Origin: a bacterium
GTDB taxonomy: Bacteria > SAR324 > JACQKK01
Direction of reading: 5' to 3'
NCBI GenBank assembly: GCA_035266845.1
Contig: DATFMP010000103.1
Span: 42,891 to 106,890 of the forward strand
DNA length: 64,000 bases
Position 1 is the stretch's first letter, and each line of letters begins with the position of its first letter. Of this stretch, positions 7,455-64,000 are shown one piece after another. A model generated the notes under the pieces. The model did not search any database. It had not been told where the DNA came from and saw nothing but the letters and a program-made list of their open reading frames with translations. The position numbers were made by a program, and so were the translations under genes.

Positions 7455-7812
7455 AGGGCGAGAATTCGGGTTCCTCCGGCGAGTGGTCCGGCGCATCCGC
7501 CGGGTCCAGCCGCACCCGGTCGTAGGGAATGCTGACGGGCAGGGAAACCGGGGCCTTGCCGCCCTCCGGGCTCTCGGCCAGCAGATGCAGGGCCAGCCCC
7601 TGATCGTGCAGGGTCACGGCGATCTGCAGGCCGGGCACGCCCGTGCGCAACTCCCCATGATAGATGTCCGTGCTGCAGGCGTCCAGCTCCTCGATGCCGT
7701 CCGTCGTGCCCACAACGCGCAGCGTGGAGCCGGGACAGGTCAGCCGCACGCGCTGCCCATCGTGGGCATTGAGCCACGCGGAGACGGCCTTGCGGTCAGC
7801 AAATTGCGCCAT
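7423..7812 (-). CDS. hypothetical protein
   Basis: Codon usage is consistent with its neighbours and the ORF is co-directional with the LPS-like block. I recognise no motif. Confidence 0.4.
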   Translation of the reverse strand: MAQFADRKAVSAWLNAHDGQRVRLTCPGSTLRVVGTTDGIEELDACSTDIYHGELRTGVPGLQIAVTLHDQGLALHLLAESPEGGKAPVSLPVSIPYDRVRLDPADAPDHSPEEPEFSPYELLHFPRSY

Positions 7813-7901: not shown

Positions 7902-7931
7902 TTGACAATGTCATGAGGCGATCCGTATGCT
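7902..7931 (+). promoter_or_regulatory. sigma-70-like promoter TTGACA-N18-TATGCT upstream of the riboswitch
   Basis: TTGACA at 7902-7907 and TATGCT at 7926-7931, placed a few nt before the riboswitch core. Confidence 0.4.
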
Positions 7932-7934
7932 CGG

Positions 7935-8092
7935 CCCGTCGGGTGCCTCTGCGGAGGTCAAAAGGGAATCCGGTGCAATTCCGGAGCTACCCCCGTAACT
8001 GTAAGCGCCAGCCGTTCCGCCGATCACGCCACTGGGACTGACAGCCCGGGAAGGCCGGTTGGAAGGCGCGAGCCAGGAAACCTGCCCGATGT
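7935..8092 (+). promoter_or_regulatory. cobalamin (B12) riboswitch
   Basis: AAAGGGAATCCGGTGCAATTCCGGAGCTACCCCCGTAACTGTAAG core. B12-box GCCACTGGGA...GGGAAGGC. 3' GAGCCAGGAAACCTGCCCG. All in canonical order. Confidence 0.8.
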
Positions 8093-8314
8093 CTTGCTTC
8101 GAATGCCTTCGGAGGGAAGGAGGAAGCTCCATTCGATGGGTCAGCATCGGATGTCTGCCGGCAGGAGCCGGCGCCTGACGCACTCCCTCCCCAGACTTCG
8201 ACGGTTGCTACGCCCGGGCGTGCCGCGTCCGCTGTCGTGCGTTGTGCGCGGCGCGGCGGCGTTTCGCACGATGCCGGGCGGTGGCCGTCGCATCCCCGCG
8301 CGCGGGAGGCGCCC

Positions 8315-9613
8315 ATGGGGTCCGGTCTCACACAGGGGTTGCGCGAGGTGCTGGCGCTCGCGCTGCTGGCGGCATCGGCGGCGACGCTGGCCGCGTGCGG
8401 CGGGCCGTCGAGCGCGGTGGGCACGGCCGCCTCGCAGTTCGCCGCGCCCGTCTCCGCCGGCGACTACCTGTACTGCATCACCAACGTCGGCCACACACTG
8501 ACCGTCTACGACCTGGCCCGGCGCCAGGTGCGGCCGCAGGCCTCGCGTTACCTGGACCTGGACCCGGTGGGGCCCTGGTTCTCCGGCGGGGCCGGCTACT
8601 ACCTCTCCCGGGTGGATACCAGCGGCGCGGGCGCCAACGCCCTGATCCGCTTCGATCCGGTCACGGGCGCGGAAACGGGGCGCCTGCGCTTTCCGGCCGA
8701 CTCGAACCCCAACAGCCTGCTCGTGCTGCCTTCGCACCCCGGCGTGGCCTGGGTGGCGCTGCGGGGCAGTACGTTCGACAACTTCGCCACGGACGGCATC
8801 TCCGTGGTGGACCTGACCACCCTGCGCGACACGGCGTTCTGCGACCTGAACGCCGCCACGGGCACGAGTACCTGCCCCGCGCTCCATCCCGCGGGGGCCG
8901 GCACGCTCACCTCGCCGCTGGGCTTCCAGTGGGATGCCGCAGGCTGCGGCGGGGCGGGCTGCGCCTACGCCGTGGTCAACGACTTCGACAACTCCGGTGT
9001 GCGCAACGGCTGGCTGCTGGCCCTGCAGCCCGACAGCAGCGGCGTGCCCACGCTGAATCAAGGCGTGCCGCTCGGCCGCAACCCCATGCAGGACGTTGTG
9101 CTGGACACGACCCGCAGCGCGCTGTGGGTGGTGAACAACGGCGGCTATGTGCACTACGACGCGAACGGTCAGGCGGGTACGCTGCAGGTGCTGGACACGA
9201 CCAACCTCGCAGCCGACCCGGATTCGGACGGCTTGGCCGGCACCACGCTGGCCATCGAGAGCGCGGCCACCTGCGGCTCGCCGCCCAGCCCCGACCCCGG
9301 CTGCGACCCCACCGGCATCTATACGCTGGACGGCTCCACGGGCTGGTTGACGACCTATCCGAACGACGTGCTGCGCACCGTGGATTTGTCCACGCAAGCG
9401 CTGGGCACCAGTCCGGTGCAGGTCACGGGGCCGTTCTTCCCCGTCGCCGATGACCCGGCCAACCCTGGCAACCCGGCGCTGTTCGCGGCTCTGGGCGGAC
9501 TGGGCCTGGCGCGGCTGGGCGAGCTTAACGCCATCGCCACCACCCTGCTGCGCGACGACCCGCTGGACGCGGGCCCCGCGCCGCTTTCCTGCACCGAATA
9601 CACGGTGCCCTGA
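8315..9613 (+). CDS. lipoprotein, probable beta-propeller (YVTN-like repeats)
   Basis: SD GGGAGG precedes the ATG at 8315. Lipobox LAAC|GG. Gly/Asp/Thr/Val-rich beta-type composition (YLYCITNVGHTLTVYD, ALWVVNNGGY). Confidence 0.7.
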   Translation: MGSGLTQGLREVLALALLAASAATLAACGGPSSAVGTAASQFAAPVSAGDYLYCITNVGHTLTVYDLARRQVRPQASRYLDLDPVGPWFSGGAGYYLSRVDTSGAGANALIRFDPVTGAETGRLRFPADSNPNSLLVLPSHPGVAWVALRGSTFDNFATDGISVVDLTTLRDTAFCDLNAATGTSTCPALHPAGAGTLTSPLGFQWDAAGCGGAGCAYAVVNDFDNSGVRNGWLLALQPDSSGVPTLNQGVPLGRNPMQDVVLDTTRSALWVVNNGGYVHYDANGQAGTLQVLDTTNLAADPDSDGLAGTTLAIESAATCGSPPSPDPGCDPTGIYTLDGSTGWLTTYPNDVLRTVDLSTQALGTSPVQVTGPFFPVADDPANPGNPALFAALGGLGLARLGELNAIATTLLRDDPLDAGPAPLSCTEYTVP

Positions 9614-20987: not shown

Positions 20988-22203
20988 TCACGTTCGATTT
21001 GCTTCCAGCCGCTCCAGCGCACTGTGCACGAGGCTGGGCAGGAGGGTGCGGCGAAACGCGATCAGGCCCGGGCGCTCGCCCAGTGCCTTGACGGCGGGCA
21101 CGGCGCGGCAGGCCAGCAGGTAGTCCGTGCGCCCCGCAGCCGCGATCTGCTCCAGCCGTGCTTGCACCAGCGCCGCATCCGGATAGGCGAGGTGCTCCAG
21201 GTACGCGGGCGGTGCACCGGGGTGGTGGAACTCGAAGTCCGGCACCAGGCTGCGGTTGCCGGGCAGCGGCAGCAAGGCCTCGGCCGCGGCCGCGCGCCAG
21301 GGCGAATCCGTCTCGTTGAAGCGCTCCACGAAGCGGCGCACCTCGTCGGAGACCCACTGCCCGTGGTCGGGGTAGTGGCTGCGCAGCCAGGGGTGGGGCT
21401 CCAGCCGCAGCAGGGCGGGCTGGCGGGTCTTGCCCAGCCGCAACTCCGCCTCCAGCCGCCAGGGTTGCTCCCACAGCAGCAGGGCGGGGAAGAATTGCGC
21501 CAGCTCCAGCCCGTAGCGCGTGGCGGAGTCCAGCACGCTCAGGGGGCCGTCCACCACCAGCCACAGCGGCCCGGGCTCCGCACCGGCGTCGGCCGGCACC
21601 TCCTGGCGGAAGAGCAGGCGGTAGAACTTCAGGTAGCGCATCAGTTGCCGCAGCCGGCGCGGCTCCGGCCAGGGCGCCGAGATCGTGACCCGCTCCGCGC
21701 GCAGCAGCAGCCCCTGCACCTGCGCCACGTTGTAGCGATAGGGCAGTTCCTCCGCCCGCAGGGGCTCCAGGGACAGCAGGCGCTGGTGCTCCTCCAGGTC
21801 CGCGAAGAGCGCGGCATCGGCGGCGGCCACGTCCAGGCCCAACGGGGTGGCCGCGCCACCCAGCACGGCGGCGCGCCAGGCAGGCGTGCCCGGCGCCTCG
21901 TCTGAGCGCCATGCCGCCGCCGCGGCATCGAACACGGCTTGGCGCAGCGTCGCCGGATCGGCCGCCGCAGCCACCTCGAACGTGCAGCGCTCCAGCAGCA
22001 GGCGCGCCAACCCCTGCGGGGCGCGGGGCGGCAGAGCGGGGAAGTCCGCGGCACGCAGGGCTTCCTCCAACTCGCCGCGGGGCTGCCCCACGTGGGCCTG
22101 CACCAGCGCCAGCAGGTCCCGTGCCGCCTCGCACGCAGCGGGGGCGGCGGGGTCCAGCAGCCGAGGTTTCACCTGCCCCTGGCGGCGGCGATAGTCCAGC
22201 AGA

Positions 22204-22217
<14 letters not shown>
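20988..22217 (-). CDS. DUF790 / Bax1-like nuclease partner of XPB helicase
   Basis: About 410 aa, starting 14 nt before the stop of the helicase gene. General resemblance to DUF790; recollection-level. Confidence 0.55.
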
Positions 22218-23586
<1,369 letters not shown>

Positions 23587-49108: not shown

Positions 49109-49984
49109 CTAGACGGCCTGGGCCTCGGCACCGGCCGAAACGATCTCCCAATGGTCGGTCAGCTCGGCCATCCGCTGCAGCAGCCGATGGTTGAGCTGGT
49201 GGCCGGACTTGACGCCGCGGTACTCGGCCAGGATGGGCGCACCCGCCAGCGAAAGGTCGCCGATGGCATCCAGGATCTTGTGGCGCACGAACTCGTCCCG
49301 GTAGCGCAGCCCGCCCGGATTCAGCACGGCCCCTGCCGGATCAAGCGCCACTGCATTCTCCAGCCCGGCGCCCAGGGCCAAGCCCTTGCGCTGCAGGCTC
49401 TGCAGATCCTCGATGAAGCCGAAGGTGCGGGCCTTGGCCAGTTGCGCCACAAAGGTCTGCGGCGTGAGGAACACCTTGAGGGACTGCGTCTGAATGCCGG
49501 GATTCGGGAAATCGATCAGGAACGAGTAGGTGGGGGCAACGGAGGGGAACAAACCGGCGAACTTATCGCCCGCCTCCACCTGAATCGGGGCGAGCACCTT
49601 GATGTAGCGCCTTGGCGCCGCCTGTACCTTGCGGCCCACCTCCATGATCCGCGCAACGAAGGGCTGGGAGCTGCCGTCCATCGCGGGCATTTCCGGCCCT
49701 TCGGTCTCGATGACGACGTTGTCGATCTCCAGCCCCGCCAGCGCGGCCAAAAGGTGCTCCACGGTACACACCTCCAGGCCCTCGCGGCCGAGGCAGGTGC
49801 TCATGGTCGTGCGCACCACCGATTCGTGCGTGGCGGGGAACTCCACTTGGCGCCCACCGGAGAACAGCCGGAACCACACGCCCGTATCCGGCGGCGCGGG
49901 CAACAGCGAAACCTGGGTCGGCTGACCCGAGTGCAGGCCCATGCCGTAGATGTGGCAGGGGGCGCGTAGTGTGTATTGCTGCAT
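49109..49984 (-). CDS. lpxC: UDP-3-O-acyl-N-acetylglucosamine deacetylase
   Basis: MQQYTLRAPCHIYGMGLHSGQPTQVSLLPAPPDTGVWF, TVEHLLAAL, FVRHKILDAIGDL. Confidence 0.9.
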   Translation of the reverse strand: MQQYTLRAPCHIYGMGLHSGQPTQVSLLPAPPDTGVWFRLFSGGRQVEFPATHESVVRTTMSTCLGREGLEVCTVEHLLAALAGLEIDNVVIETEGPEMPAMDGSSQPFVARIMEVGRKVQAAPRRYIKVLAPIQVEAGDKFAGLFPSVAPTYSFLIDFPNPGIQTQSLKVFLTPQTFVAQLAKARTFGFIEDLQSLQRKGLALGAGLENAVALDPAGAVLNPGGLRYRDEFVRHKILDAIGDLSLAGAPILAEYRGVKSGHQLNHRLLQRMAELTDHWEIVSAGAEAQAV

Positions 49985-59275: not shown

Positions 59276-59644
59276 ATGAACACCACGCCATTCCAGACCG
59301 CAGCGACGACGGACGACACAGGCCTGTGCGGCACGCACCGGCCCGGCAGCTATGCTGAGTTGACGCCGCATGAATTCCACGCCCGCAAGGACCTGGGGGT
59401 GGTCGTGCTCAAAGTGGCTGGCGCCGCCGAGCAGTTCGCCGGCTTCCGCAGCGTGTTCGCGCTGGGCTGCAGCACCGAGATCGACACCGTGCTGGCCAAC
59501 TGGCCGCGCGAGGCGCCGCTGGGGCTGGTCTGCGCGGACGGGCAGTGCAGCAGCCGGCTGGCGATCCGCCTGTCCCGCCGGGGCTACCACGTGTTCCACC
59601 TGGCCGGGGGGCTGCACGAATGGCAGCAGTGCTGCCTGCCGTAG
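59276..59644 (+). CDS. single-domain rhodanese-like protein
   Basis: VCADGQCSSRLA active-site-like loop and HLAGGLHEW ending. Confidence 0.6.
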   Translation: MNTTPFQTAATTDDTGLCGTHRPGSYAELTPHEFHARKDLGVVVLKVAGAAEQFAGFRSVFALGCSTEIDTVLANWPREAPLGLVCADGQCSSRLAIRLSRRGYHVFHLAGGLHEWQQCCLP

Positions 59645-59773
59645 CCGCCTCACACACCGGCGCTTCCACCACCGAATGATCCACGGCACGGGGCCCGTGC
59701 ATCCGCACGAAGGCCACAGATGCCGCACGCCCCGCGCTTGAGCGCAGCGGGGCCATTCCCGTACAATGAAGGT

Positions 59774-60227
59774 AGAGACGGGCGCGCAGGAAGTCCAAAA
59801 CGCGACCGCTGCCCGCCGGCCCGCAAGGGCCGCGTGGGGAGAGGAAAGTCCGGGCTCCACAGAGCAGGGTGCTGGCTAACCGCCAGGGGGGGCGACCCCA
59901 CGGAAAGTGCCACAGAAAATACACCGCCGATGGCGGGCCGTGCCTCACGGCACGGTGCGTACAGGTAAGGGTGAAATGGTGGGGGCCGCGGTCCTGCTGC
60001 GGCCTGAAAGTAAGAGCCCACCGCGGCACCGGCGACGGTGCCGGCAGGGTAAACCCCACCCGGAGCAAGTCCAAGCAGGCGGCGTTTCAAGGTTGCTCGC
60101 CGAGCCGCCGGGTAGGACGCTGGAGCGTGCCGGCAACGGTACGCCTAGATTGATGGCCGCGACGGCGCTTCACCGCGCCGGACAGAACCCGGCTTAATGA
60201 GGACTTCCCGCGCGTCTTCCCGTCTCT
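59774..60227 (+). ncRNA. rnpB: RNase P RNA, bacterial type A
   Basis: GAGGAAAGTCCGGGCTCCACAGAGCAGGGTGCTGGCTAACCGCC, GGAAAGTGCCACAGAAAATACACCGCC, GGTAAGGGTGAAATGGTG, GGTAAACCCCACCCGGAGCAAG, ACAGAACCCGGCTTA. P1/P2 closing pairs AGAGACGGG.CGCGC.GGAAGTCC with GGACTTCC.GCGCG.CCCGTCTCT. Confidence 0.85.
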
Positions 60228-60236
60228 CCTCGCGCG

Positions 60237-60701
60237 CTAATCCGGTATGCCTTCGCGCACGCCGCGCACGGCCGCGCCGATCTCCCCGGCGTCCATGGCC
60301 AGTTCCATCAGCGCCACGTGCTCTTGCCAGGCCTGGGGCGGGATCTGCGCCTTCACCTCGGCTTCCGTGATGTGGTAGACGGGCAGGCCCAGCGCCACGC
60401 CCGCCAGGGCCCCGGCCCAGGAGGGGTCGCCGCTGGTCACGCTGATAGCGTAGAGGCGACTGCTGTCCACCGTGGGTGTGCCCAGCAGCACAACCAGTTC
60501 GCCGGAGGAGTGCCGCTCGGCCGTGGTCTTGATCTCTTCCTGACCCTCCAGGTCAAGTGCGCCGGCGGACGTTCACACGAAGCAGTAGGTCTTCTCCAGC
60601 ACCACCTCCGCCCCTAGCTCCCGCGCGCAGGCGGCGATGGCCGCCCCCTGCACGCCGTCGCGCTCGCCCAGGGCGATGATCTTCTTGCCGCGCAAGTCCA
60701 T
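60237..60701 (-). CDS. grdA: glycine/sarcosine/betaine reductase complex selenoprotein A, with in-frame TGA = Sec at codon 43 (60575-60573)
   Basis: My translation is MDLRGKKIIALGERDGVQGAAIAACARELGAEVVLEKTYCFV-U-TSAGALDLEGQEEIK...SGDPSWAGALAGVALGLPVYHITEAE. CFVUT and GDP-x-x-AG-x-LAGV-x-LGL-x-VYH are GrdA hallmarks. Confidence 0.85.
60539..60557 (-). promoter_or_regulatory. candidate bacterial SECIS hairpin downstream of the grdA UGA
   Basis: CUUGACC-UGGAG-GGUCAGG: a 7-bp stem with a 5-nt loop, starting 15 nt after the UGA. Confidence 0.35.
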
Positions 60702-60803
60702 GGCTAGCTCCCGCTGTTGGCTGGGCTCCCGAGCGAGCCCCCTTCTGCGCCGTTCCTATCACGCGCCGCACCGCGTGGATAGCTGGCGCGGCCATACCCT
60801 CCG

Positions 60804-62294
60804 CTACTCCCCCAGCGCCGGATTGCGCTCCAGCAGCAGGGAGAGGCCGTCGCTGAGCTGGGTCATGCGGCCCAGGAAGAGGCTGCCCTTGGCCAGCAGC
60901 AGCACGCGCCGGTAGCGGCCGTCGCGCAGGCCCTCCAGCGCGTGACCCAGGAAGGGCAGCGCCGAGGCGATGTGCCCCTGGGTGGGCGAAAAACCGGGCA
61001 TGCCGTGCCGCGCCACGAAAGCAGGCAACTCCGCCGGCGGCAGCTCGCCGTGCAGGGCGGCCAGCCCCGCGATGACGCGGTAGTTCAGCGCGGGCACGTC
61101 GCCGCTGCCGGCAGGCTCGGTCAGCTCCGGGTTGTGCAGCTCGGTGGCGTACTTGTCCACGTCCGCGAAGCGCAGACCCTGCGCCGCCAGGGGCTGGGCC
61201 ACCAGCGCCTCGAAGATGGCCTGCTGCGAGGCGCCCGCGGCCACGCTGTGGCGCCCCAGCGCATCCAGCCGCAGGCGCGGGGAGCGCCCGTCGTCGCGCT
61301 CCACCAGCACGGCCGCGGCGGCCAGCGTGTCCTCCAGGATAGGCTGGTCGTGCCGCAGGTGCCCGGCGTACTTCATGCCCAGCTTGGCCAGCGAGCACCC
61401 GCCGACCACGGCCACACGCGGGAACACGCCCGCGGCCACCAGGCTCCCCGCCAACACCAGCGCGTGCAGGGGCCCCGCGCAGAACGCCTTCACGTCCGCC
61501 CCCGTGGCGGCCTGCAGCCCGCACAGCTCCGCGACGGCCTTGGCCAGGTTGCCGCCGCCGCGCTGATAGCGGTCGCCCACCGCCTCCTCGCCGCTGTTGA
61601 GCACGTAGCCGATGTCGCCCGGCGCGATGCCCTCCGCCGCCAGCAGACCGCCCAGCGCCAGGGCCGCGCTGGCCTTGCAGGCCAGGTTCTCCAGCAGCAC
61701 GTCCGCGCTCAGGGTGGCGTCCTCGGCATGATCGGCGCGGATGCAGCCCACCAGCCGCCCCTCGCGCGTGTGTAGGGGCAGCGCGGGCAGTCCGCCGTGC
61801 AGCCGGGTCTGTAGCGCCTCGGCGCTCAGCCCAGCGCCCAATCGCTCCAGCAGCGCGGGGGTGACCTGCCCGTGGCGCTCCAGCGCGGGCCGCACCTCCG
61901 CCACAAAATCGGCGGCGAGGGACACCAGGTCCGCTGCGTCGGCCAGCTTCAGCCATGCCAGGAACTCTGCCTCGGGCATGATCTCGCCGTGGGGTCCCTC
62001 GCGCGACGCCTCCGGCGGGAAAGCGGCCGCGAACCAGGGCCGCGGCAGCCCGGCCAGGGCGTCCGGGTGCAGCCTGCCGATCATGGCTTGGTTGGGGGGA
62101 TAGGCGAGCGCCGCGGGAAAGTCGCGCAGGTGTGCCGCGATGCGCTCGGCCAGCGGGGCAGCAGCTTCGGCGGGGGCCGCGCTCTCCGCCGCGAGGTCGC
62201 GCGCGGGCTTGGAGCCCTCGCGCACAAGCCCCGGCGTGTGCGCCAGGAAGAAGTGCGCGGCGCGGATGACGGGCAGGGAGGCGGCTGCGGTCAC
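60804..62294 (-). CDS. grdC: glycine reductase complex component C beta subunit-like (GrdC)
   Basis: VIRAAHFFLAHTPGLV, YPPNQAMIG, GEIMPEAEF, LENLACKAS, EEAVGDRYQRGGGNLAKA, AFCAGPLHAL, AKLGMK, PILED, TQGHI, KGSLFLGRMT. This matches my recollection of GrdC. Confidence 0.75.
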   Translation of the reverse strand: MTAAASLPVIRAAHFFLAHTPGLVREGSKPARDLAAESAAPAEAAAPLAERIAAHLRDFPAALAYPPNQAMIGRLHPDALAGLPRPWFAAAFPPEASREGPHGEIMPEAEFLAWLKLADAADLVSLAADFVAEVRPALERHGQVTPALLERLGAGLSAEALQTRLHGGLPALPLHTREGRLVGCIRADHAEDATLSADVLLENLACKASAALALGGLLAAEGIAPGDIGYVLNSGEEAVGDRYQRGGGNLAKAVAELCGLQAATGADVKAFCAGPLHALVLAGSLVAAGVFPRVAVVGGCSLAKLGMKYAGHLRHDQPILEDTLAAAAVLVERDDGRSPRLRLDALGRHSVAAGASQQAIFEALVAQPLAAQGLRFADVDKYATELHNPELTEPAGSGDVPALNYRVIAGLAALHGELPPAELPAFVARHGMPGFSPTQGHIASALPFLGHALEGLRDGRYRRVLLLAKGSLFLGRMTQLSDGLSLLLERNPALGE

Positions 62295-62358
62295 GGGTTC
62301 GCTCGCGCGGAGGAGACGCAGAGGAGGGCGGCGTCCCTGGCGGCCCGACGTTCAGGGC

Positions 62359-63204
62359 TCAGACGGGCCCGTGCGCGCCGTTCTCCATGGGGGTGCTGTC
62401 GCTGTTGGCCCACTCCTTCATGGAGCCATCGAAGTTGCGCACACGCGGGAACCCCAGCAGGGTCAGCACTAAGGCCGCCTGGGAGGCGCGGATGCCCGCC
62501 TGGCAGTGCGTGATCACCTCGTGCTCCGGCGTGATGCCGACTTTGCTCAGCCCGGCGCGCAATTCGTCCGCCGGCCGGAACATGCGGCGCTCATCTTCGG
62601 CGAGGCTGTTGATCCACTCCCAATGCATCGCGCCGGGAATGTGGCCGGTGCGCCGATTGCCCCAGGGGTTGTGCCCCGCCCATTCGGACTGGTTGCGCAC
62701 GTCCAGCACCTGCACGTCCGGATCGTCCAGGTGCTTGAGGACGTAGTCCACGCGTGCCAGCACGGCCTGGTTCGGGTGCGGAGAAAAGCGCGCGGGCGGC
62801 CGCTGCTTCAGGTTCAGCGAGACCGGCCAGCCCTCGGCGCGCCAGCGGTGCCAGCCGCCGTTGAGCACGCGCACCTTGGCGTGGCCATAGTAGGTGAGCA
62901 CCCACCACACGCGAGCCGCGGCCATGCCACCGTGCCGGTCGTACAGCACGACGGTGGTCTCCTTGGTGATGCCGAGCTGGCCCATGGCCTGGGCGAAGCG
63001 CTGCCGATCCACCACGTGCAGCGGGTCGTCCGGATCCTTCAGGGAGAAGTGAACCGGCAACGCCACGGCACCTGGGATGTAGGCCCAGGTGTGGCCATGA
63101 CCGCCCGAGCAGTCCACGATGCAGAGATCCGGATCGTCCCGCACCGAGTCCAGCCACTCCGGATCGGCCAACAACTCCTGCCGATCGTAGTTTGATGCCT
63201 CCAT
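62359..63204 (-). CDS. two-domain rhodanese sulfurtransferase (SseA/thiosulfate-3-mercaptopyruvate type)
   Basis: Tandem rhodanese domains. Active-site loop HCQAGIRAS. YIPGA and HIPGA motifs. GSMKEW ending. Confidence 0.85.
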   Translation of the reverse strand: MEASNYDRQELLADPEWLDSVRDDPDLCIVDCSGGHGHTWAYIPGAVALPVHFSLKDPDDPLHVVDRQRFAQAMGQLGITKETTVVLYDRHGGMAAARVWWVLTYYGHAKVRVLNGGWHRWRAEGWPVSLNLKQRPPARFSPHPNQAVLARVDYVLKHLDDPDVQVLDVRNQSEWAGHNPWGNRRTGHIPGAMHWEWINSLAEDERRMFRPADELRAGLSKVGITPEHEVITHCQAGIRASQAALVLTLLGFPRVRNFDGSMKEWANSDSTPMENGAHGPV

Positions 63205-63272
63205 CGATCTCGCGCGGTGATCGTGGGTTCCCCCCCAACGATGGCGCGGGTCAGGCCTCCATCTCGCTGTTA

Positions 63273-64000
63273 TTATTCGATGCAACTCAGGCTGTTGAAT
63301 CCGTAATGGTCATCGTAGCGCCAGGGTGGCGGCAGCCGCCCTGCCGCGGGCACCAGCACGTCCCTGCCGGTACCCGCGCGCCGGTCACCTTGGATCGCCT
63401 TTTCCGGCAGCCCGATCACGCGCTGCACAGGGGCTGCATCCGGGATCTCCAGCGTGCGGTTGTTGAAGAAGCTGGTGCTGACGATGGCGTCGGCCTCCGG
63501 CAGCGGCTCCAGCATGGTGGGCGCGCCTTCCGTGGCGTCGTCCTCGCTGGTCAGAAAGACCGTCTTGATCCCGAGGCGCTCGCAGGCCTGCACGGTGCGG
63601 ATCACCTCGATGAACTCGTTGCCGCCGGCATCCCAGGTCACGATGGCTCCGTCCGCGCCCAGGGTTTGCGCCAGCTTGGCGGTCTGATTGGCCATAAGCT
63701 GCTTCTCGTGCTGCGTCGTCCACTCCGTGCGCAGCACGATGTCCCCCAGGAAGTTCCAGTCCAGCCCATGGCGCCGCAGCAGGTCCATGTGCAGCGGATT
63801 GTTGGCCACGGCCCAGGACATGGCAAAGGCAGTGCGGTACGAGCCCGTCAACGCCCCATCCAGCACCTCGTTGGGGTGCAGATACCAGGGTGGGGTGAGT
63901 TGGGTGAGCCCGTAGGTGGCCGTTCCGTAGGCCGTCGGCGATCCACTCATCGCCTGCGGCGAGTGCACGCACCAGATGTAGATCACGTTGGGAAGCTGCG
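63273..64000 (-). CDS. glycine/sarcosine/betaine reductase component B alpha/beta-type subunit (GrdE/GrdG/GrdI family), C-terminal part only; N-terminus beyond window
   Basis: The frame stays open to the window end. HPNEVLDGA, NNPLHMDLLRRHG-x-x-NF-x-G, AKLAQTLGADGAIVT, CERLGIKTVFLTSE follow the family pattern as I recall it. Confidence 0.6.
   Translation of the reverse strand, partial: QLPNVIYIWCVHSPQAMSGSPTAYGTATYGLTQLTPPWYLHPNEVLDGALTGSYRTAFAMSWAVANNPLHMDLLRRHGLDWNFLGDIVLRTEWTTQHEKQLMANQTAKLAQTLGADGAIVTWDAGGNEFIEVIRTVQACERLGIKTVFLTSEDDATEGAPTMLEPLPEADAIVSTSFFNNRTLEIPDAAPVQRVIGLPEKAIQGDRRAGTGRDVLVPAAGRLPPPWRYDDHYGFNSLSCIE

Follow-up and report, generated by a model that had tools for sequence, protein, structure and literature searches.

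A Grd-type selenoprotein operon with an embedded rhodanese gene, lacking the pyruvoyl-precursor cysteine and a nearby grdD, in a GC-rich diderm bacterium

The DNA analysed here, hereafter called the window, is a stretch of 64,000 nucleotides (contig DATFMP010000103.1 of GenBank assembly GCA_035266845.1, positions 42,891 to 106,890) which ends within a cluster of genes related to those of the glycine, sarcosine and betaine reductases (Grd). The cluster is a five-gene operon, grdB'(Sec)-grdE'-rhodanese-grdC-grdA(Sec), where Sec stands for selenocysteine, and the window holds its 3' two-thirds. Judged by its sequence, the B component fails the curated models for glycine, sarcosine, betaine and fluoroacetate reductases and defines a conserved, uncharacterised clade. 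The operon probably, though by no means assuredly, encodes a Grd-type reductase for a substrate of the form X-CH2-COO-, working without a pyruvoyl group and with the rhodanese as a lineage-specific accessory. Grd-type enzymes are a textbook case of selenium-dependent, substrate-level energy conservation. To our knowledge, their biochemistry comes almost only from Firmicutes and a few other anaerobes and covers glycine, sarcosine and betaine, with fluoroacetate reduction described genetically.

An earlier reading of the window, made without database searches and hereafter called the sequence-only reading, had placed four genes on the minus strand at this end of the window (a partial GrdE-like gene, a two-domain rhodanese, grdC, and a grdA with an in-frame UGA), all of which were found where it had placed them (Table 1). 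It had also predicted a selenocysteine-containing grdB-type gene further upstream. The same contig is present in a public assembly (L001; 75 kb, 100 % identical), which was found through an exact look-up of GrdC. Beyond the window end L001 continues with the rest of grdE' and then with a GRDB-family gene with an in-frame TGA, the predicted gene, and it is this extension that establishes the five-gene operon. The first 11 bases of grdE' are also the last of grdB' (L001 positions 7718-7728). The intergenic gaps within the cluster are 68, 64 and 102 bp, and no terminator-like sites were found in them.

Judged by their motifs, both selenoproteins are intact for selenium chemistry. In grdA the in-frame TGA lies at 60,573-60,575, in the context ...TYCFV-U-TSAGALDLE..., which gives a CxxU motif (C40-F-V-U43), and the protein passes the NCBIfam model reduct_selen_A (cut-off 130 bits). 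The GrdB' motif, LLVAT-U-GTC-NRC-G, is of the form UxxCxxC. A stop codon occupies the selenocysteine position in 32 of 32 homologous grdA matches, and the selenocysteine codon is kept in 73 of 73 GrdB-type matches. Directly after the grdB' UGA begins a match to the Rfam selenocysteine insertion sequence (SECIS) family SECIS_4 (40.1 bits, gathering score 38, E 1e-6). A hairpin in grdA starts 15 nt past the UGA and is present in the minimum free energy fold; this fold is not better than those of shuffled sequences (z +1.0), and the hairpin has no Rfam match. The gene callers split both grdA and grdB' at the TGA, and GrdD is missing nearby, as might be expected of a decaying remnant in which the in-frame stops are real and GrdD was lost along with the function. 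Such decay is extremely improbable: the frames continue past the TGA as highly conserved sequence, the stop stands at the exact selenocysteine position in all the homologues counted above, the curated SECIS_4 model is matched, and identities of 73-86 % across many phyla point to purifying selection.

The families of selA, selB, selD, trx and grdD were not seen among the Pfam-scanned open reading frames (ORFs) of the window (29 of the larger ORFs upstream of 50 kb, those of higher third-position GC) or in the L001 gene table for 50.8-64 kb. On a Dehalococcoidia chromosome (L036:7436-8386, minus strand) a divergent gene for a 316-amino-acid AIRS/AIRS_C protein, probably the selenophosphate synthetase SelD, adjoins grdB', and selenocysteine machinery would therefore be linked to the cluster there.

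The precursor of the pyruvoyl group in GrdE was shown experimentally to be Cys242 (PMC9908766); GrdI and FarE, in which these cysteines are missing, are not proproteins (PMC10838667). At the cleavage site, canonical GrdE reads DGAILSGN/CVSAC (cleaved at the slash), GrdI reads DGAMISGSFMPCS (SGSFMPC at the site) and GrdE' of the window reads TGSYRTAF, and all clade members as well as the window protein read DGALTG[SP]YRTAFAMSW. In the alignment with GrdE of Acetoanaerobium noterae and GrdI of Enterococcus gilvus, Tyr247 of GrdE' is aligned with the precursor Cys, and this Tyr is invariant across the clade. The nearest cysteines are C203 and C332, with none between residues 204 and 331. The sequence-only reading, which saw only part of the protein, was thus right that the cleavage-site Cys is absent; a cleavage Cys further towards the N-terminus, beyond the window, was ruled out with the full-length L001 protein and its alignment to GrdE and GrdI. 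It had also counted the absence among the oddities of this cluster, to which the absence is not peculiar: in a set of 106 full-length representatives (at 50 % identity) closest to the query, which is biased toward its relatives and in which the loop aligns with gaps, the precursor Cys is retained in two and Tyr is found in 40. The alignment suggests that GrdE' is unprocessed and has no pyruvoyl precursor, as is the case for GrdI. Full-length GrdE' scored 205 bits with the GrdG model (cut-off 780) and 122 bits with the FarE model (cut-off 675).

With the NCBIfam models, GrdB' scored 408 bits for GrdF (cut-off 800), 360 for GrdH (cut-off 775) and 345 for GrdB (TIGR01917, cut-off 602), failing all three; the one model it passed was TIGR01918, which is generic for the selenoprotein-B subfamily (398 bits, cut-off 65). 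Motifs have been published for the substrate regions of GrdB and GrdF, the glycine-specific GrdB motif being AHGGxD...RV[IL]PxD...TxGNxTxV (PMC9751293). The corresponding blocks of GrdB' (FHAGYFN, YILPLN and LPGVSTPV) deviate from the GrdB and the GrdF motifs at all three places, and the GrdF-type blocks IHGGYDR and TTGTGT are absent. The identity of GrdB' to GrdB and GrdH is 37-39 %, against 47 % between those two; that of GrdE' to GrdE and GrdI is 31-32 %, against 39 % between the latter. By identity, the B'E' components lie outside the GrdB/GrdH and GrdE/GrdI pairs.

Homologues of GrdE' numbered 1,604 at E<=1e-5, the 120 closest being 73-100 % identical, and a scan of species-representative genomes gave 60 loci. 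Their hosts belong to Rokubacteria/Methylomirabilota, Entotheonella/Tectimicrobiota, Dehalococcoidia, Binatia, Nitrospinota, Acidoferrum, SAR324, Desulfocapsaceae and other Deltaproteobacteria, and Deferrimicrobiaceae, and at least eight phylum-level groups have the conserved order GrdB'-GrdE'-GrdC-GrdA. Arrangements were counted in the 59 loci that extend far enough beyond grdE': grdC follows directly in 27, lies further along on the same strand in 5, lies nearby on the other strand in 2 and follows after a rhodanese in 3, while in 22 there is no grdC within 10 kb. Where both are present, grdA nearly always comes after grdC. A full-text literature search of limited coverage gave no description of the clade, of GrdD-less Grd clusters or of a rhodanese in a grd operon.

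Annotation pipelines name the clade proteins 'glycine reductase' or 'sarcosine reductase', and the operon could be that of a divergent true glycine reductase, serving glycine catabolism or the reductive glycine pathway, with GrdD, thioredoxin and acetate kinase encoded elsewhere and the loss of the Cys tolerated because glycine is bound via GrdB. All Grd core families are present with selenocysteine conserved, the components of the clade are often unlinked, and what the pyruvoyl group of GrdE does in substrate binding is debated, a proposed second carbonyl in GrdB having been cited (PMC9908766). The TIGR01917 score, the glycine motif unmatched at three blocks (PMC9751293), the lack of the precursor Cys in every clade member examined and the position of B'E' outside the reference pairs nevertheless make a glycine reductase unlikely.

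The sequence-only reading had left the choice between a betaine-type enzyme and one with a new substrate; the latter fits better, and the GrdH score speaks against the former. A betaine reductase orthologue, splitting glycine betaine, or a quaternary compound close to it, into trimethylamine and an acetyl unit, would share with GrdI a PF09338 subunit without the cleavage Cys (PMC10838667), and GrdB' does share the HAG[YF] block with GrdH and not the HGG block of GrdB. A gene for a class-III-type Zn alcohol dehydrogenase (assigned by eye) adjoins several Entotheonella and Binatia loci and, if it encoded a formaldehyde dehydrogenase, might hint at methylated-amine metabolism. Such an orthologue is very unlikely all the same, since GrdB' scores lower with the GrdH model than with the GrdF model, the identities to the betaine pair are no closer than those to GrdB and GrdE, and the Asp of the GrdH block HAGFD is Phe in GrdB'. 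The annotated neighbours of the clade loci include no betaine transporter of the BCCT or OpuA type and, instead, Tct carboxylate and Dpp-type ATP-binding cassette (ABC) systems; in Dehalococcoidia and Rokubacteria, grdB'E' stands next to Dpp/Opp-type ABC systems that have a family-5 binding protein. Weakly, these transporters favour an anionic carboxylate, or one resembling a peptide or an opine, over betaine.

A second B-type pair, GrdE2-GrdB2, is found in Rokubacteria a few kb from GrdB'E' (L007:13916-21306, L060:13458-21308, L012, L009, L018 and L043). GrdE2 is 33-35 % identical to GrdE' of the window and GrdB2 44-46 % identical to its GrdB'. GrdB2 reads U-GTS-TRC, with Ser for the first Cys of UxxCxxC, and the cleavage Cys is missing from GrdE2 too. 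The second pair in L007 and L060 adjoins a NitT/TauT-type ABC transporter and apparently shares one GrdC-GrdA pair with GrdB'E'.

The 496-amino-acid protein, earlier described as GrdC-like, matches the NCBIfam GrdC equivalog reduct_C_beta (NF040746) end to end, in addition to Pfam DUF5940 and ACP_syn_III. A generic thiolase or FabH enzyme was ruled out on the strength of this match, FabH models giving just 18-24 bits against 580 for the equivalog. GrdC is the beta subunit of component C and has a thiolase-like fold; the window protein is 41 % identical to GrdC of A. noterae and has an invariant Cys272, in FCAGP. The GrdCs aligned were those of the window, L008, L015, L023, L031, L036-L038, L040, L046, L047, L060 and L068. 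Most clade GrdCs (13 of 14) have two cysteines in a row at their thiolase-type active site (FCCGP), the window GrdC and canonical GrdC having FCAGP, and the clade GrdCs are without the C-terminal tail of about 25 residues of canonical GrdC. A sequence search found no solved structures for GrdE' or GrdC.

GrdD is the alpha subunit of component C and supplies the thiol that forms acetyl phosphate; its gene normally comes right after grdC. The sequence-only reading had stated that grdD does not follow grdC, and this holds well beyond the window. A tblastn search with two GrdD references (E<=1e-3), covering the 64-kb window and about 10 kb around the clusters, matched nothing in the window and nothing in 67 related loci. 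Canonical loci for comparison came from a metagenome scan with GrdD, of which the best 80 were kept, all of them canonical and of low GC (29-54 %); in 63 of the 65 that were informative for adjacency, GrdC lies directly upstream of GrdD. Against this baseline, the clade loci robustly lack a nearby GrdD. Neither trx nor trxB was found in the 64-kb window by tblastn with Trx and TrxB references, and both genes occur inside the cluster only in two Desulfobacterota loci, L046 and L047, which points to the usual thioredoxin route for the family; in the other loci they are presumably unlinked. The gene order in these loci (L046:64-5348, L047:3143-8545) is GrdB'-GrdE'-GrdC-Trx-GrdA-TrxB, preceded by genes for a PAS/sigma-54 activator and a TctC-TctA carboxylate transporter.

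Of the two domains of the rhodanese, the N-terminal one has Asp and is of the inactive kind, and the C-terminal one carries the catalytic Cys234 in the loop H-C234-QAGIRAS, of which C234-QAGIR is conserved in 39 homologues. Its closest solved relatives are the thiosulfate sulfurtransferases 1UAR (Thermus thermophilus rhodanese) and 1E0C (RhdA of A. vinelandii), and from its sequence it is classified as of the thiosulfate-sulfurtransferase type. It scored below the cut-off of the NCBIfam equivalog for 3-mercaptopyruvate sulfurtransferase (128 bits, cut-off 250) and weakly matched the NCBIfam model of ExtH, a rhodanese of selenite reduction (66 bits, cut-off 200). Recurrence of a rhodanese in Grd-like clusters was borne out within the sublineage of the window and not in other lineages of the clade. 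In that sublineage (L068, L070 and L071-L075, with GrdE' 81-86 % identical and from several independent projects) the gene lies between grdE' and grdC in L068, L070 and L071-L073, and L074 and L075 have the same spacing with the flanking genes cut. It is syntenic in every sublineage contig that reaches this position, and its 61-73 % identity and retained catalytic Cys indicate that it has been selected in place. The rhodanese was also considered as a conserved member of the whole enzyme family, an idea which after tblastn across 69 loci was retained for the window sublineage only: about 55 related loci of other phyla are without it, and none of the best 80 canonical Grd loci has one in such a place (0/80). 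It is therefore neither a family-wide stand-in for thioredoxin nor a required partner, and in the Desulfobacterota the cluster carries trx and trxB. Its sequence and distribution mark it as a selected, lineage-specific accessory and not as a core subunit.

Within its own lineage the rhodanese could still be an integral partner, which would resolve the Se-S or thioester form of GrdA in place of thioredoxin, deliver selenium to the two selenoproteins, or handle a sulfur leaving group (X being sulfite, sulfide or a thiol); the first two of these roles had been suggested, as an inference, in the sequence-only reading. It lies inside the operon, between gaps of 64 and 68 bp without a terminator, its synteny and conservation speak for selection in place, and the window has no trx or trxB; there is also the weak ExtH match, and rhodaneses can reportedly carry perselenide. 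Integral partnership is nonetheless quite unlikely. About 55 clade loci do without the rhodanese, and the specificity motifs of GrdB' are alike in lineages with and without it. The Desulfobacterota members would use cluster-encoded Trx and TrxB. The junction between grdE' and grdC is occupied in other lineages by unrelated genes (Peptidase_S9, SBP_bac_5, dienelactone hydrolase or ABC_sub_bind), and the nearest non-Grd homologues (45-49 % identity) lie in peptidase operons of Dehalococcoidia. As an accessory, the rhodanese is plausibly a carrier of persulfide or perselenide, and it may act as a leaving-group handler or redox helper.

The Dehalococcoidia operons (L076:4391-8834, L077 and L078:4397-8834) have a conserved trio of genes for an Xaa-Pro aminopeptidase (M24), a DPP-IV-like Peptidase_S9 and the rhodanese, and in L064 a Peptidase_S9 gene lies between GrdE' and GrdC. 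A 122-amino-acid ORF of the window (59,276-59,644, plus strand; third-position GC 0.89), located between the cluster-side genes and the RNase P RNA, has a C-terminus, VCADGQCSSRLAIRLSRRGYHVFHLAGGLHEW, that faintly resembles a single-domain rhodanese (2.8 bits with the rhodanese profile) and has no Pfam match.

By analogy with the established Grd mechanism, an X-CH2-COO- substrate that is neither glycine nor sarcosine would bind to GrdB'E' without a pyruvoyl Schiff base, as in GrdHI and FarBE, and the selenolate of GrdB' (U of UxxCxxC) would displace X to give carboxymethylated GrdB'. The carboxymethyl group would then pass to Sec43 of GrdA, and GrdC would make the acetyl thioester at Cys272 and leave GrdA oxidised (Se-S), to be re-reduced by a thioredoxin encoded elsewhere. 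Since no GrdD is encoded nearby, the acetyl group might be released by an unlinked GrdD-, PlsX- or Pta-like enzyme, by hydrolysis, or to CoA. The rhodanese would have been recruited into the operon only in the lineage of the window, which is probably related to SAR324.

Several observations weigh against this interpretation. GrdD may be encoded elsewhere in the genome, given that the search covered the surroundings of the clusters and the window. Loss of the Cys may not strictly exclude glycine, because the role of the pyruvoyl group is debated. GrdC and GrdA are not within 10 kb in 22 of the 59 informative loci, and the components can therefore be unlinked in the clade. The neighbouring transporters vary by phylum (Dpp-type ABC, TctABC, other ABC) and give no single substrate clue, and the evidence for the grdA SECIS candidate is weak and positional. 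The sequence-only reading was partly right, the cluster being non-canonical, without the cleavage Cys and without a nearby GrdD, and probably for a new substrate; it gave too much weight to the rhodanese.

More speculatively, and with considerable doubt, GrdB'/GrdE'-GrdC-GrdA might constitute a distinct selenoenzyme system that needs neither pyruvoyl nor GrdD, is common in uncultured phyla of soil, groundwater and sponges, which are not classical Stickland fermenters, and cleaves an unrecognised carboxylate, the acetyl group being freed without GrdD-dependent acetyl phosphate; in the SAR324-like bacteria a dedicated rhodanese would have been built into this chemistry for the transfer of sulfur or selenium. 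For the carboxylate, the neighbouring transporters and peptidases, and nothing else, suggest an N-substituted glycine from peptides or opines, or an acetate that bears sulfur. The clade is abundant in metagenomes, across the phylum-level groups listed above, and is routinely mislabelled under the two pipeline names. Should the new substrate and the independence of GrdD hold true, the clade would bring a new reductive C-X cleavage into the carbon, nitrogen or sulfur cycles of soils, aquifers and sponges and would be a natural experiment on GrdC acting alone. Pathway reconstructions in which such genes are taken for glycine reductase (reductive glycine pathway, trimethylamine surveys) would then have to be corrected. 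The variant with the rhodanese provides a well-defined case, open to testing, in which a sulfurtransferase is coupled to a selenoprotein operon.

The RNase P RNA is convergent with grdA and marks the boundary of the cluster, without being part of the Grd system; a promoter-like site lies by it at 59,738-59,767. At the other end, grdB' is preceded by a 570-bp leader, in which no convincing sigma-54 site (TGGCAC-N5-TTGC) and no Rfam riboswitch match were found. Before the leader, outside the window, is a gene for a 918-amino-acid fusion of an N-terminal GNAT domain with an ADP-forming acyl-CoA synthetase (L001:3056-5812). It has a counterpart in L003 (L003:1407-4160, 85 % identity), the sole conserved position among the loci with sequence there; L069 has a different gene upstream of the cluster, and the upstream DNA of L068 and L071 is too short to judge. 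The fusion was considered as the missing acetyl-handling step (acetyl-CoA to ATP) and, being conserved beside the cluster only in L003, was treated as coincidental.

The host had been taken for a GC-rich diderm, which agrees with the 68 % GC of the window, an LpxC gene at 49,109-49,984 and a Porin_4 gene nearby. The closest named relatives of the window citrate synthase are SAR324 metagenome-assembled genomes (82 % identity), a tentative placement from a single gene. Elsewhere in the window, a cobalamin riboswitch (7924-8103, plus strand, 120 bits) lies upstream of a 458-amino-acid ORF without a Pfam match (8237-9613, plus strand), and a gene for an XPB/ERCC3-like helicase with an XPB damage-recognition domain is paired with a DUF790 gene (20,988-23,586, minus strand). 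DUF790 we take to be the archaeal XPB partner Bax1, which would make the pair an XPB-Bax1 arrangement in a bacterium.

Table 1. Features of the cluster and its surroundings. Positions are those of the window unless preceded by L001.
Feature	Position	Strand	Evidence or remark
grdB'(Sec)	L001:6382-7728		upstream of grdE', outside the window
grdE', full gene, 434 amino acids	L001:7718-9022		5' part beyond the window end
grdE', partial (242 codons, 3' part)	63,273-64,000	minus	Pfam Gly_reductase PF09338, E 1e-31
Tandem-domain rhodanese, 281 amino acids	62,359-63,204	minus	PF00581 twice, E 1e-34
grdC, 496 amino acids	60,804-62,294	minus	NCBIfam reduct_C_beta, 580 bits (cut-off 450)
grdA (Sec), 154 amino acids	60,237-60,701	minus	Pfam GRDA 178 bits; reduct_selen_A 181 bits
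Candidate grdA SECIS hairpin	60,539-60,557	minus	8-bp stem, GGA loop
RNase P RNA, class A	59,790-60,211	plus	Rfam RF00010, 242 bits

The loci of E. gilvus pCR1A (L066) and A. noterae (L067) served as references for known systems, with the gene orders trxB-trx-grdA-grdC-grdD-grdI-grdH-BCCT transporter and trxB-trx-grdE-grdA-grdB-grdC-grdD, respectively. Glycine reductase GrdABCDE of the Acetoanaerobium/Clostridium sticklandii type has in common with the window system the GrdA and GrdC equivalogs, the selenocysteine-containing GRDB-family and the PF09338 subunits, and probably SECIS-directed decoding of UGA. It differs in that Cys242 is replaced by Tyr in GrdE', the GrdB motif and TIGR01917 are not matched, grdD is not beside grdC, and grdA comes after grdC rather than between grdE and grdB.

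Betaine reductase GrdH/GrdI, known from Eubacterium acidaminophilum together with GrdA, GrdC, GrdD and TrxA/B, resembles the window system in its two selenoproteins (CxxU and UxxCxxC), its GrdC and its PF09338 partner without a cleavage Cys, and the chemistry predicted for the window system would likewise need no Schiff base. In contrast, the identities are 38.5 % to GrdH and 31.9 % to GrdI, the GrdH model fails, the gene order is B-E-C-A instead of trxB-trx-A-C-D-I-H, the window has no GrdD, BCCT transporter or trx genes, and the hosts belong to uncultured diderm or environmental phyla. The fluoroacetate reductase FarB/FarE of Cloacibacillus porcorum MFA1 (PMC10838667; NCBIfam NF053623) sets a precedent: its substrate is not an amine, its GrdE homologue is unprocessed, and the B-type pair relies on borrowed GrdA and GrdC. 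It is unlike the window system in the failing FarE model, in that FarB has no CxxC after the selenocysteine, whereas GrdB' keeps UxxCxxC, and in using the canonical GrdC/GrdD of its host. The tandem-domain thiosulfate sulfurtransferases (1UAR, 1E0C and Escherichia coli SseA) share with the rhodanese the two domains, the inactive Asp in the N-terminal domain and the catalytic Cys in a six-residue C-terminal loop, but the rhodanese of the window is embedded in a Grd-type selenoprotein operon. By analogy of mechanism, betaine reductase and fluoroacetate reductase would be the closest known systems, and the window system passes the specific model tests of neither.

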